From Escherichia phage vB_EcoM-UFV10, in the sequence record OP555981.1: 64,000 nucleotides of DNA. The stretch is one strand, 5' to 3'. The notes below the pieces were generated by a model. That model searched no databases, was not told the origin of the DNA, and was given only the letters and a program-made list of their open reading frames with translations. Of this stretch, positions 4,977 through 61,732 are shown one piece after another. Both the position numbers and the translations under genes were made by a program. The stretch's first letter is position 1. Each line of letters opens with the position of its first letter.

Positions 4977-5153
4977 TTACCCTTTAAGTAAATCGTAAAA
5001 TCCACCATTCACATGCTTAGGAGCAGAAGGCCGACGAGTAGACAAACGATGACATTTAGGACAAACATCATTTTCTCGTTCAGAAATCTTTTTAATTTTT
5101 TCATATTCATGCCCGCAATCTTCGGATTGGCATTTATAATCATACATTGGCAT
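4977..5153 (-). CDS. small zinc-ribbon protein (CxxC...CxxC)
   Basis: 58-aa ORF below the track cutoff, read by hand: MPMYDYKCQSEDCGHEYEKIKKISERENDVCPKCHRL...; fits exactly between neighbouring genes. Confidence 0.5.
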   Translation of the reverse strand: MPMYDYKCQSEDCGHEYEKIKKISERENDVCPKCHRLSTRRPSAPKHVNGGFYDLLKG

Positions 5154-15475: not shown

Positions 15476-15483
15476 TATTTATA
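15476..15483 (-). promoter_or_regulatory. late promoter (TATAAATA) for soc
   Basis: forward TATTTATA = minus TATAAATA about 30 nt upstream of the soc ATG. Confidence 0.6.
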
Positions 15484-15625
15484 ACTTACAATTTAGCGGC
15501 TTTCCAGAGTTGTTCAATAATCTCTTGGTCTATTTCTTTAGTTATTTCATTACGTAATAAAGCAGTAAGGGCTTTCGCCCTTTTCTTATTCAACTTTTTG
15601 AGTTGGCGTTTATTTAAACGGGACA

Positions 15626-16144
15626 TTAATAACCTCGGTCTTGACGTGCGAAATTTTCAGCATTTTTCAGATAATAAAGTTTAAAGATTTCTTCTGCTGT
15701 AAGACCAAGACCCTGGAACATATTCAGAACGAAATGAAGAATATCAATCATTTCAAATTTAATTTCTAACTGGTCTTGTGGAGACAAATCAGTAATCAGA
15801 GTTTCACGACGTTCACCATGCTGCGACTTCCAAGGTTTCCATACAGCAGATGCGTCTTTTTCACCATTACTCATACCACCAAGAGAAGTCAGAAGTTCAC
15901 GGAATTCATCGTCAATATAATCTTTCTGATTACGCAACCAATCAACAACTTCACCGGCAGTAGCTAAGTCATCAGGATGACGATTATATTCAGGTTTATC
16001 TTTAGCTAAACGAACCTGCAAAGATTTCTGCATATCAAGCATTACCTGCAGCGGGTCTTTTTCATCGCCGAGAATATCCCAATATTCATTTTGAGCTTTA
16101 TCAGCGCCTTCAATCAGTTGTGAACATTCGTTAAAGTAAGCCAT
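15626..16144 (-). CDS. 56: dCTPase/dUTPase (MazG-like dCTP pyrophosphatase)
   Basis: 172 aa from ATG MAYFNECSQ (track adds 31 codons of leader); size and position match T4 gp56. Confidence 0.8.
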   Translation of the reverse strand: MAYFNECSQLIEGADKAQNEYWDILGDEKDPLQVMLDMQKSLQVRLAKDKPEYNRHPDDLATAGEVVDWLRNQKDYIDDEFRELLTSLGGMSNGEKDASAVWKPWKSQHGERRETLITDLSPQDQLEIKFEMIDILHFVLNMFQGLGLTAEEIFKLYYLKNAENFARQDRGY

Positions 16145-16178
16145 TATTTTTCCTTTCAATTCATGGGTTAGTAGATTA

Positions 16179-16203
16179 ATTATACAATAAATATATAAAG
16201 CAA
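16179..16203 (-). promoter_or_regulatory. MotA-dependent middle promoter for gene 56
   Basis: minus strand TTGCTTTA then 11 nt then TATAAT, about 35 nt upstream of the gene 56 ATG. Confidence 0.55.
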
Positions 16204-16215
16204 TAAGGAGGACAT

Positions 16216-16416
16216 ATGGTACAAAAATTAATGGCACTTGTTAATGCCATCAAAGGTAATAAGAAACGTATAGCTTTTACTATTTCTGCTATGGTAGGAA
16301 TTTTACTCTGGAACTTTATTTTATCACCAATTGCAATTGCGCATGGTGTTAATATTCCAGTAGTTACTCTTGATACATTCGTAGATCTAGCATTTGCTTT
16401 AGTTGGGTTGATTTAA
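16216..16416 (+). CDS. putative small membrane protein on the opposite strand
   Basis: 66-aa ORF, AAGGAGG 4 nt before ATG, two hydrophobic segments; sits in the 56-61 intergenic region. Confidence 0.35.
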   Translation: MVQKLMALVNAIKGNKKRIAFTISAMVGILLWNFILSPIAIAHGVNIPVVTLDTFVDLAFALVGLI

Positions 16417-17441
16417 ATCTTAGCATATTTAGATAGCCGCATTTTAGCCATCAACCCCTGGGCAATATTATTTTTCATATATTCCATAATTTGTTCAGGG
16501 GTTGCACCTTCCTTTCTAATCATATCATTAACATCTTTAGATTTCCAGGGAGATTTATCCCAAAACATAACCCTTTCTCCTGCATCAACTAATTTAGTCA
16601 TTCGTTTGATAGTGTCAGGGTGACGAGGTTCATTATCTAAAACCCACACTCGTCTATCTTTAAATGGAACAATTTCTAGGTCTAATTGACCACCCGTAAT
16701 AGCTATACCATTTTCAATAAAAAGTGAATCTATAGGTCCTTCTAGAACATATACATCGCCATCTTTAACTCGTTCGACTCCATAGATTTTTGTTGCCTCA
16801 GGATAAGCTTTAATGGTGATATATTTTTGAGGAGCATTTTTCTTTAATGCACGCCCTTGAAACGACTCGGCTTTTCCGTTAGCATTATAAATTGGAATAA
16901 CAAGACGAGGCTCAGGTATTTCCTTTTTATATGTTCCCGGTGCTATGCTATTAACCAATTTAGGCCATTCGGTTGTAAACCAAAGATATTTCCATTTATC
17001 CTTTGGAATACAACGAGCTTTTACGTATTTTATAATTGGATGGTCTTCCGCCAGTTTATCTAATCTAACACATGACGGAAGAGATTTAATTATTTTCTTC
17101 TCAGGTTGTTTAGGAAGTTCTTTAGGTTTTTCTACTGGACGACTTTTACCTTTTTCTTTTCTTATTTCAAAGATATACTCACGATATAAATCAGGTTCAA
17201 ACTCCTTTAAATATATTCCGATTGGTGCGTGATAGTTACAGTTATAACAATGAATATTTCCTTCATTATTATCACCATAATACCATCCACGAGCTTTATT
17301 CTGGTCGGTTTTTGAATCTCCACAAACGGGGCATCTAAACCGCAATTTAAAAGTTGAACTATTATTTACTTGTGTGAATTTAGGTAAATGAGCCAATGCA
17401 CGATACGCAAACTCATTATCAATCCAAGGTATTGATGACAT
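16413..17441 (-). CDS. 61: DNA primase
   Basis: 342 aa, zinc-binding CPVCGDSKTDQNKARGWYY..., toprim region; matches T4 gp61 length and position. Confidence 0.9.
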   Translation of the reverse strand: MSSIPWIDNEFAYRALAHLPKFTQVNNSSTFKLRFRCPVCGDSKTDQNKARGWYYGDNNEGNIHCYNCNYHAPIGIYLKEFEPDLYREYIFEIRKEKGKSRPVEKPKELPKQPEKKIIKSLPSCVRLDKLAEDHPIIKYVKARCIPKDKWKYLWFTTEWPKLVNSIAPGTYKKEIPEPRLVIPIYNANGKAESFQGRALKKNAPQKYITIKAYPEATKIYGVERVKDGDVYVLEGPIDSLFIENGIAITGGQLDLEIVPFKDRRVWVLDNEPRHPDTIKRMTKLVDAGERVMFWDKSPWKSKDVNDMIRKEGATPEQIMEYMKNNIAQGLMAKMRLSKYAKI

Positions 17442-17443
17442 TT

Positions 17444-17608
17444 TTACTCTTCTTTTTCTTTAGATTCCTCTTTTTTCTTTTTAGGAATCTGTTCAGGACC
17501 TTTATTTACTACAGCACCTGATGTTGTTCCAGTAGAGATATTTTCAGGATTACCACCTGAATCTCCAGCAACCATATCTTCTTTAATAAATTCTTTATAT
17601 GTTTTCAT
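17444..17608 (-). CDS. small protein with capsid-targeting-sequence-like N-terminus
   Basis: 54-aa ORF read by hand: MKTYKEFIKEDMVAGDSGGNPENISTGTTSGAVVNKGPEQIPKKKKEESKEKEE; GAGGT SD; same MKTYKEFI start as 62759-63232 and 63249-63566. Confidence 0.5.
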   Translation of the reverse strand: MKTYKEFIKEDMVAGDSGGNPENISTGTTSGAVVNKGPEQIPKKKKEESKEKEE

Positions 17609-17652: not shown

Positions 17653-17966
17653 GATGGAATAGCAACTTTTTCTGCATCATTTAGCAAATCATTAATTTCA
17701 TCAGATAGCATAACACATGTACCTTTATTTCCTGTAATTGTTACTGCACAATTACGAACGTTTTCTTTATTAAATTTTAGGTTAATATTTTCGTAATGAA
17801 AATCCTTTAATGCTGAATATATTTTTAAAATAAAATTGTCTTTTACTACAATAAACCCAACCTCACTATTAAAACGTGGTTCATGGAAACTGTAATAAAC
17901 CTTTTCATCTATAAAATCGTATGAAATTTTTTCCATTTTTAAATATGAAAATTCAGAACTATACAT
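17610..17966 (-). CDS. hypothetical protein
   Basis: 118-aa ORF; C-terminus SIDDQIFNAFMNRG shared with upstream ORF. Confidence 0.45.
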   Translation of the reverse strand: MYSSEFSYLKMEKISYDFIDEKVYYSFHEPRFNSEVGFIVVKDNFILKIYSALKDFHYENINLKFNKENVRNCAVTITGNKGTCVMLSDEINDLLNDAEKVAIPSIDDQIFNAFMNRG

Positions 17967-31603: not shown

Positions 31604-31611
31604 TATAAATA
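31604..31611 (+). promoter_or_regulatory. late promoter (TATAAATA) for the plus-strand HNH endonuclease
   Basis: exact TATAAATA on forward strand about 33 nt upstream of the ATG at 31645; AAAAGGA SD. Confidence 0.55.
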
Positions 31612-43973: not shown

Positions 43974-44190
43974 AATAAACCCTTACCTTAAATAGATAAG
44001 GGTATTTATTATTTTCAAGTATTGTAAAAGGCTCGATGCAATCGCTTATACTGCCGAATCATCTTTTTAGTAGGACGAGAATAAGTTCCTACACAAGTGG
44101 TCATATTAGGGTCGGTAGGACTTCCTTTAATAAAAAGTTTCCAAACCTTACCACCATTTAACTTTTCAGTATAAATCAATTCAGTTTTCA

Positions 44191-57349: not shown

Positions 57350-57391
57350 ATATACCCCTTTAGTTAGATAAACCTATTTATAACTTTTGCA

Positions 57392-61370: not shown

Positions 61371-61732
61371 TACAAACTCTCGGTAAAGGTACGAGCGATA
61401 ACGTCGCGCTGCTGTTCCGGAGTCAGAGAGTTAAAGCGAACTGCATAACCGGATACACGGATGGTCAGCTGCGGATATTTTTCCGGATGCTTAACTGCAT
61501 CTTCCAGAGTTTCACGACGCAGAACGTTAACGTTCAGGTGTTGACCACCTTCAATTTTAACTGTAGGCTGTTGCTCAATTTCAATTTCACGGGCATGCAA
61601 ACCGTAGAAAATTTCTGGGTCTACAAAAGAGTCCTCTTTAAAAGTTTTAGAGACAATAATTCGTGCTTGAATACCATCTTCAAAATAAATAGTACCTTTA
61701 TGCGTGCCTTCAAGAATTTGATATGCTTTCAT
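61370..61732 (-). CDS. autonomous glycyl radical cofactor (GrcA/YfiD-like spare-part protein)
   Basis: 120 aa; C-terminal [59 protein letters not shown] resembles E. coli GrcA; 3' half GC-rich. Confidence 0.75.

Follow-up and report, generated by a model that had tools for sequence, protein, structure and literature searches.

Genomic context of the small ORF

A window of 64,000 nucleotides (64 kb) from Escherichia phage vB_EcoM-UFV10 was analyzed, with a focus on a small open reading frame (ORF) located between gene 56 and gene 61. The 1.9-kb stretch at 15600–17500 that contains these genes is 100% identical to the Tequatrovirus Escherichia phage vB_EcoM-UFV09 (MZ291552.2). The locus is composed of the following elements:

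15626..16144, minus strand: gene 56 (dCTPase), the divergent left neighbor of the small ORF
16205..16211, plus strand: Shine-Dalgarno (SD) sequence AAGGAGG, 4 nt upstream of the small-ORF ATG
16216..16416, plus strand: small ORF of 66 codons with an ATG start, stop included, a member of phrog_2024
16413..17441, minus strand: gene 61 (DNA primase), the convergent right neighbor of the small ORF

A first-pass annotation of this DNA had described a 66-residue ORF with a strong AAGGAGG site in the intergenic region between genes 56 and 61. The ATG, the coordinates, and the SD sequence at 16205–16211 were all verified, and the gap between the two genes (16145..16412) is indeed taken up by the small ORF, whose stop codon and that of gene 61 share a 4-nt overlap. 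The arrangement AAGGAGG-N4-ATG occurs once in the window, against an expectation of 0.15 occurrences. The strand of the small ORF is opposite to that of all neighboring early and middle genes. Its description as convergently transcribed therefore holds with respect to gene 61 and does not hold with respect to gene 56, from which it diverges. The proposed proximity to a replication origin is borne out by the position annotated as oriA in T4, which is close to the small ORF.

Gene content to the left of the small ORF differs among relatives. The left neighbor is gene 56 in this phage, which has no dam gene; its place is taken in T4 by dam, in T2 and HY03 by dam together with an additional ORF, and in other genera by small ORFs. 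Given this variable neighbor, the small ORF is preserved within a plastic region.

The sequence between gene 56 and the small ORF (16145–16215) is variable when compared with loci L001, L018, L020, L031, and L032. Homing endonucleases have been inserted near the locus in the relatives H21, H36, and DK-13. DK-13 additionally carries a second, partial, and diverged copy of the small ORF (L005 1760–1875; ...LWNLLVVPIAATQGVHLPQV...), flanked on one side by the full copy and on the other by an annotated homing endonuclease gene that has been inserted ahead of gene 61. The same extra copy is present in VR26 and VR25 (L011 and L012, about 1750–1901), where the loci are unannotated. In these three phages the extra copy resembles what co-conversion with a more distant donor would leave behind.

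Conservation and coding potential

An open frame of 66 codons is unremarkable by itself in DNA of 35% GC content, and many antisense ORFs of that size occur in the window. The distribution of the encoded protein was used to evaluate whether this one is a gene. A tblastn search identified the protein in 692 phage records, with at least 80% coverage in 686 of them. Identities were 90%–100% in ~500 Tequatrovirus records and below 60% in ~190 records, and sampled Mosigvirus and Gaprivervirus matches ranged from 44% to 56% (~55% for Mosigvirus and ~45%–52% for Gaprivervirus). A profile search against 1.84 billion representative proteins returned only 10 matches, some with ~30% identity, with lengths of 60–69 residues. 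The location and orientation of the small ORF are unchanged across six Tevenvirinae genera, at identities as low as ~30%. Distant T4-like members were placed using T4-like metagenomic contigs and Jiaodavirus, Karamvirus, and Kanagawavirus genomes; in each of these contexts the ORF is a lone plus-strand gene that abuts the 3' end of the primase gene or is one gene removed from it.

The plus-strand frame is free of stops in 12 of 12 lineages, and all other frames are interrupted in at least half of them. A family alignment of 22 cluster representatives (A1) contains 16 invariant positions, and both of its internal deletions are 3 residues long and hence in frame. Divergence in the broad family alignment was too great to allow a pattern scan. 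Within genera, pN/pS values are 0.21 for Tequatrovirus, 0.22 for Mosigvirus, and 0.45 for Gaprivervirus, with codon position 2 the least variable, but the antisense shadow frame produces similarly low within-genus values, so that substitution statistics alone cannot pick the strand. Between genera, dN/dS is uninformative because synonymous sites are saturated (pS 0.6–0.8). A protein-level motif, WN[FY]..P.A...G..LP plus a downstream E, survives this synonymous-site saturation.

Disruption of the frame in close relatives had been put forward as an observation that would count against the ORF. Such disruption is essentially not seen: 686 of the 692 matches are full-length, and frameshifted alleles are few and mostly singletons from read-level assemblies. 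Because such alleles exist, the gene is probably dispensable in the laboratory. The conservation, fixed position, and upstream signals of the small ORF are, on these comparisons, far beyond chance, and it is very likely a real gene.

The opposite strand of the small ORF

The DNA of the small ORF also has features that read in the opposite direction, one of which is a potential terminator:

16218..16253, minus strand: terminator-like hairpin (16253..16228) followed by a T run, inside codons 5–13 of the small ORF

The hairpin has a predicted RNA folding energy of −14 kcal/mol (z = −3.5). All 13 Tequatrovirus sequences examined have it unchanged, and it is missing from Mosigvirus and Gaprivervirus. 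The hairpin at 16253..16228 is probably where gene 61 transcripts stop, shortly ahead of the gene 56 promoter. Earlier in infection, the DNA of the small ORF would be transcribed leftward into the untranslated 3' end of gene 61 mRNA, which in Tequatroviruses probably stops at this hairpin. Transcripts ending there would carry a tail of ~185 nt that is complementary to the small ORF.

Minus-strand functions could in principle account for the conservation of the whole interval. Under this explanation the small frame is untranslated, and the constraint comes from the gene 61 3' untranslated region and terminator or from the promoter context of gene 56 or dam. Both the significance of the hairpin and its invariance in Tequatroviruses favor such an explanation, as does the frame that continues gene 61, which is open with low pN/pS in Tequatrovirus and Mosigvirus. 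Mosigvirus and Gaprivervirus, however, lack the hairpin and still carry the small ORF. The minus-strand frame has one to three stops in 6 of 12 lineages, whereas the plus-strand frame is open throughout. The ATG, SD sequence, and ATAAATA box are retained where the DNA is otherwise unalignable, and the protein-level motif outlasts synonymous saturation. We consider it very improbable that minus-strand functions explain the conservation of an untranslated frame.

A coding role for the minus strand, as a read-through extension of gene 61, was examined and rejected. The gene 61 frame past its TAA (16216–16412, minus strand) is open over the small ORF in Tequatrovirus and Mosigvirus, and one to three stops interrupt it in Gaprivervirus, Jiaodavirus, Karamvirus, and several metagenomic relatives, amounting to half of the lineages. 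This frame is best read as a shadow frame that is non-coding.

The GGAG(G) core upstream of the small ORF is present in every lineage compared. As a fallback, the first-pass annotation had suggested that AAGGAGG might be mere context of a minus-strand promoter. This is contradicted by T4, T2, HY03, and CJY920, which have the same SD sequence and ATAAATA box; these phages have dam or a different ORF on the left, and their SD sequence is not adjoined by a MotA box.

A late-promoter-like box upstream of the small ORF

In T4, early and middle transcripts share a single polarity, and transcripts of both polarities occur only in the late class (PMC2988020). The early and middle polarity corresponds to the minus strand here, so late expression is expected of a plus-strand gene in this region. 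The sequence upstream of the small ORF was compared with the T4 late promoter consensus, TATAAATA at −13 to −6 (PMC1524935), and the following elements were identified:

16186..16193, plus strand: late-promoter-like box AATAAATA, 22 nt before the ATG, a 7/8 match to TATAAATA
16199, plus strand: predicted late transcription start, 6 nt past the box, with a 17-nt leader, placed by the −13..−6 rule

Perfect consensus matches are found at 32 of 50 T4 late sites, and 9 of 50 have an A at −13, which is the commonest natural variant (PMC2988020). A perfect TATAAATA was found upstream of the small ORF in none of the lineages examined. NATAAATA occurs 13–33 nt before the small-ORF ATG in all T4-like lineages examined except Karamvirus CkP1, which has ATTAAATA. 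The base at −13 of the box is G in T4 and T2, A in Mosigvirus, and C in Gaprivervirus. Jiaodavirus, Kanagawavirus, and T4-like metagenomic relatives are also among the lineages that bear the box, in surrounding DNA that is unalignable. Across at least four unrelated left-hand contexts, NATAAATA and the GGAG core are the only upstream elements kept. The single non-T4 relative, used as a control, has no such box upstream.

Sites matching ATAAATA are ~7-fold depleted in the window, with six on both strands compared to 40±6 in shuffled sequences. They are located at 15476–15482 (minus), 16187–16193 (plus), 31605–31611 (plus), 44003–44009 (minus), 57375–57381 (minus), and 61685–61691 (plus). Five of the six are 22–33 nt before an ATG-initiated ORF that is led by an SD sequence; these are soc, the small ORF, a plus-strand ORF for an HNH-type endonuclease of 238 aa, gene 49, and an ORF of 70 aa. 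No ORF is obvious downstream of the site at 61685. Two of these genes, soc and gene 49, are known late-promoter genes of T4. In the window both have (T/A)ATAAATA 29–31 nt before an SD-led ATG, which is the same layout as that of the small ORF. They differ from it in being on the same strand as their early neighbors, whereas the small ORF is on the opposite strand, and in their products: soc is a capsid decoration protein and gene 49 a nuclease, and the product of the small ORF is a predicted membrane protein.

Based on these patterns, the small gene is quite likely expressed late. The AATAAATA box at 16186–16193 would be read by late-modified RNA polymerase (gp55/gp33/gp45). In T4, the counterpart of the predicted start at 16199 is at about position 17,722 of NC_000866. 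When box, polarity, and conservation are taken together, we find it probable that the small ORF is a genuine and independently controlled late gene of T4-type phages.

Sequence downstream of the small ORF was searched for a site of termination, and no convincing plus-strand terminator was found after the ORF in the window. A stem formed by GGGTTGAT and ATCAACCC over both stop codons was considered as a possible terminator on the plus strand, with a base change between T4 and the window that would be compensatory, and was rejected. Most Tequatroviruses pair GGGTTAAT with ATCAACCC, leaving an A-C mismatch, and the fold that spans the stops has z = −0.6. Loci L027, L030, and L022 have a strong GC-rich hairpin directly after the small ORF, which in L027 is followed by a T run.

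Overlap with the putative gene 56 middle promoter

Middle promoters are built from a MotA box and a −10 element (PMC3016281). Elements of this type were identified on the minus strand between the small ORF and gene 56:

16202..16196, minus strand: MotA-box match TGCTTTA (ATTGCTTTA, 16204..16196), part of the gene 56 middle promoter
16184..16179, minus strand: −10 hexamer TATAAT, separated from the MotA box by an 11-nt spacer

The region upstream of gene 56 agrees, as a sequence match, with (a/t)(a/t)(a/t)TGCTT(t/c)A, centered near −30, followed by a sigma-70-type −10 element 11–13 nt on. The MotA-type promoter match is ~35 nt before the gene 56 ATG at 16144. Equivalent elements precede gene 56 in T4, Mosigvirus, and Gaprivervirus (T4, G53, TH40/DK-13). 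The ORF had previously been described as overlapping the gene 56 promoter. That description is accurate for the SD neighborhood and the late-like box and inaccurate for the coding part, since the promoter is wholly upstream of the small-ORF ATG.

The late-like box of the small ORF falls within the 11 nt that separate the MotA box from the −10 hexamer of gene 56. In a dam-less phage such as this one, the late box and the MotA-dependent gene 56 promoter would thus overlap in a back-to-back arrangement, which illustrates how a putative late promoter can be nested within a middle-promoter spacer. The late box is ~1 kb away from the gene 56 promoter in T4, T2, and HY03. Given the separation in T4, the nesting is a local consequence of the absence of dam and is not conserved.

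An alternative is that the late promoter is mainly regulatory and the peptide secondary. Late rightward transcription would collide or pair with gene 61 transcripts, and in dam-less phages it would also occlude the gene 56 promoter, a MotA-dependent promoter that in T4 is thought to provide the primer for oriA. A regulatory function of this kind would fit with a late box in the middle-promoter spacer, with the association of the small ORF with the gene 61 3' end in almost all T4-like lineages, and with the lack of a visible plus-strand terminator after the ORF in the window. The hairpins that follow the ORF in L027, L030, and L022, however, would stop antisense transcription into gene 61. The ~1-kb spacing in T4, T2, and HY03 means that occlusion is not a conserved feature, and conservation of the amino-acid motif also argues against a secondary role for the peptide. 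We regard a mainly regulatory late promoter as quite improbable. Antisense pairing or promoter occlusion is unlikely to be the main function, and it could coexist with a function of the protein.

Predicted protein product

The protein has a GRAVY score of 1.25, and its best 19-residue Kyte-Doolittle mean is 2.02 at residues 23–41. AlphaFold2, run with the family alignment, produced a model with a mean pLDDT of 77 and helices at residues 2–12, 16–42, and 52–63. The second of these helices is the predicted membrane span:

16261..16341, plus strand: predicted transmembrane helix, codons 16–42 (AlphaFold2 helix), which holds the conserved W32-N33-F34 and P38

Transmembrane-helix prediction had been proposed as a check on the ORF, and the model helix at 16–42 and the Kyte-Doolittle peak at 23–41 both agree with a membrane span. 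The earlier suggestion of a small membrane protein is likewise upheld, and the hydrophobic and conserved ORF behaves as a genuine gene for one. Five K/R residues are N-terminal to the transmembrane core, and both acidic residues are C-terminal to it, where there are no basic residues. A second transmembrane helix at residues 47–66 was considered and rejected; it is too short, has conserved acidic residues, and in distant relatives the C-terminal segment contains E, K, R, and Q and hence does not cross the membrane a second time. A single-pass topology with the N-terminus in and the C-terminus out is the likely arrangement according to the model and the charge distribution.

With this topology, the 66-residue product would insert in the inner membrane as a single-pass protein. 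Its K/R-rich N-terminus would be cytoplasmic, and a C-terminal piece of ~24 residues would be periplasmic and end in a short amphipathic helix. The most conserved part of the protein (WN[FY]..P.A...G..LP plus E) corresponds to the outer half of the predicted helix and the juxtamembrane loop. Conservation in these positions suggests that the protein acts by helix-mediated binding of a partner membrane protein, rather than as an enzyme. Searches of Pfam, NCBIfam, and PDB sequences yielded no significant match, and a viral fold search returned only members of the family.

Possible functions

Late, small, single-pass phage proteins often act in lysis or at the envelope, and a role of this type is favored on that basis. 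The small protein may tune end-of-cycle envelope events, namely lysis timing, lysis inhibition, or exclusion. This lysis- or envelope-related role is possible and is proposed tentatively, as nothing links the protein to lysis and there is no match in Pfam, NCBIfam, PDB, or by fold. A stronger version of the proposal, which we consider doubtful, is that the protein is a new Tevenvirinae-wide component of the machinery for lysis timing, lysis inhibition, or superinfection exclusion that has been overlooked in T4. Such a component might, for example, be a small protein that binds helices and in this way modulates either the T holin or a protein of the host envelope. If this were true, the interleaved late and MotA-dependent promoters of dam-less relatives could couple the middle-to-late switch at this locus; the MotA-dependent promoter concerned is the counterpart of the T4 promoter thought to prime oriA.

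Small phage holins and antiholins include lambda S105/S107, phage 21 S68/S71, and T7 gp17.5. The product of the small ORF could be a protein of this class, making membrane lesions itself or inhibiting the T holin to time lysis. It resembles these proteins in size, in its probable late timing, and in having at least one membrane helix. A homolog in phage OE5505 is labeled 'Holin' in UniProt (A0A482MZV5; P0025). Lysis genes in T4 are scattered, so an absence of linkage to them is not decisive. In contrast to holins and antiholins, the small protein lacks a charged C-terminal tail; its C-terminus is ...FVDLAFALVGLI (...ALVGLI), and its basic residues are all N-terminal. It matches no holin family in Pfam or NCBIfam, and no endolysin or spanin gene is adjacent in any context seen. 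In all T4-like contexts, primase is one neighbor and the opposite flank is occupied by dCTPase, dam, or small ORFs. A dual-start motif (M1..K4..M6), as in lambda S, was considered and rejected because it is not conserved, with position 6 being P or S in other genera. The 'Holin' label on A0A482MZV5 appears to be an unsupported annotation. Among the properties expected of a holin, the membrane helix is therefore present, and the charged C-terminal tail and either lysis-gene linkage or a holin family match are absent. A holin or antiholin function is unlikely, and the protein is not filed as a holin.

Toxins of type I toxin-antitoxin systems, such as Hok, TisB, and similar peptides, are also short and hydrophobic. 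The small ORF is like them in this respect and in that its mRNA would be fully complementary to an opposite-strand RNA, the 3' tail of gene 61. It differs in having no dedicated antisense RNA gene under a separate promoter, and in belonging to a lytic phage whose promoters fall into temporal classes. The gene 61 3' tail is the only antisense RNA predicted at the small ORF, and no separate antisense promoter is evident.

Annotation status and relatives

The small protein aligns with the profile of phrog_2024, an uncharacterized family in PHROGs v4, with an E value of 1.5e-31 (residues 2–66 to profile positions 1–65 of 65). Every distant relative identified matches the same profile, with E values of 3e-21 to 5.8e-11 for P0075–P0079. 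The ORF is annotated as a hypothetical protein in MZ291552.2, in many other GenBank records, and in a 2020s re-annotation of T4, and some GenBank records use the labels 'T4 GC 1491' and RB32ORF030w. A literature search found no paper on the small ORF. The gene is absent from the curated T4 record AF158101.6, in which its actual place is 17738..17935, between dam and 61, and it is absent from the T2 record as well.

The protein is thus already known as a member of a catalogued hypothetical protein family, and this limits the novelty of the locus. The present analysis adds that the gene is omitted from the reference annotations of T4 and T2, together with the conserved late-promoter-like box, the fixed position adjacent to the primase gene, and the predicted topology. 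The gain is modest, as nothing here reveals a function. The omission matters because T4 is a reference organism whose curated annotation is reused in transcriptomic and proteomic mapping; a T4 dRNA-seq study, for example, mapped reads to NC_000866.4 (bioRxiv 10.1101/2024.04.04.588121). A conserved gene that is missing from AF158101.6 and from the T2 record is invisible to analyses that map in this way. The protein is also easily missed by mass spectrometry. In silico digestion with trypsin yields one peptide of convenient size, LMALVNAIK, and the other 48 residues form a single hydrophobic fragment.

One relative, P0079 (E = 5.8e-11 to phrog_2024), is encoded at 5001–5210 of L029, a siphovirus-like contig that is not T4-like. 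Its gene is between tail-tip and minor-tail-like genes and is near genes for endonuclease VII and a serine recombinase. No further relatives of this non-T4 member were found in genome_contigs or viral_contigs. Non-T4 relatives were set aside as a source of functional context, as the sole one adjoins tail genes and not lysis genes. Another relative, P0074, comes from a public metagenome assembly and reproduces the small protein except that A>V, T>I, S>F, P>L, and H>Y changes run through it, as if each C had been read as T. This entry looks like a bisulfite or deamination artifact in a public protein collection.
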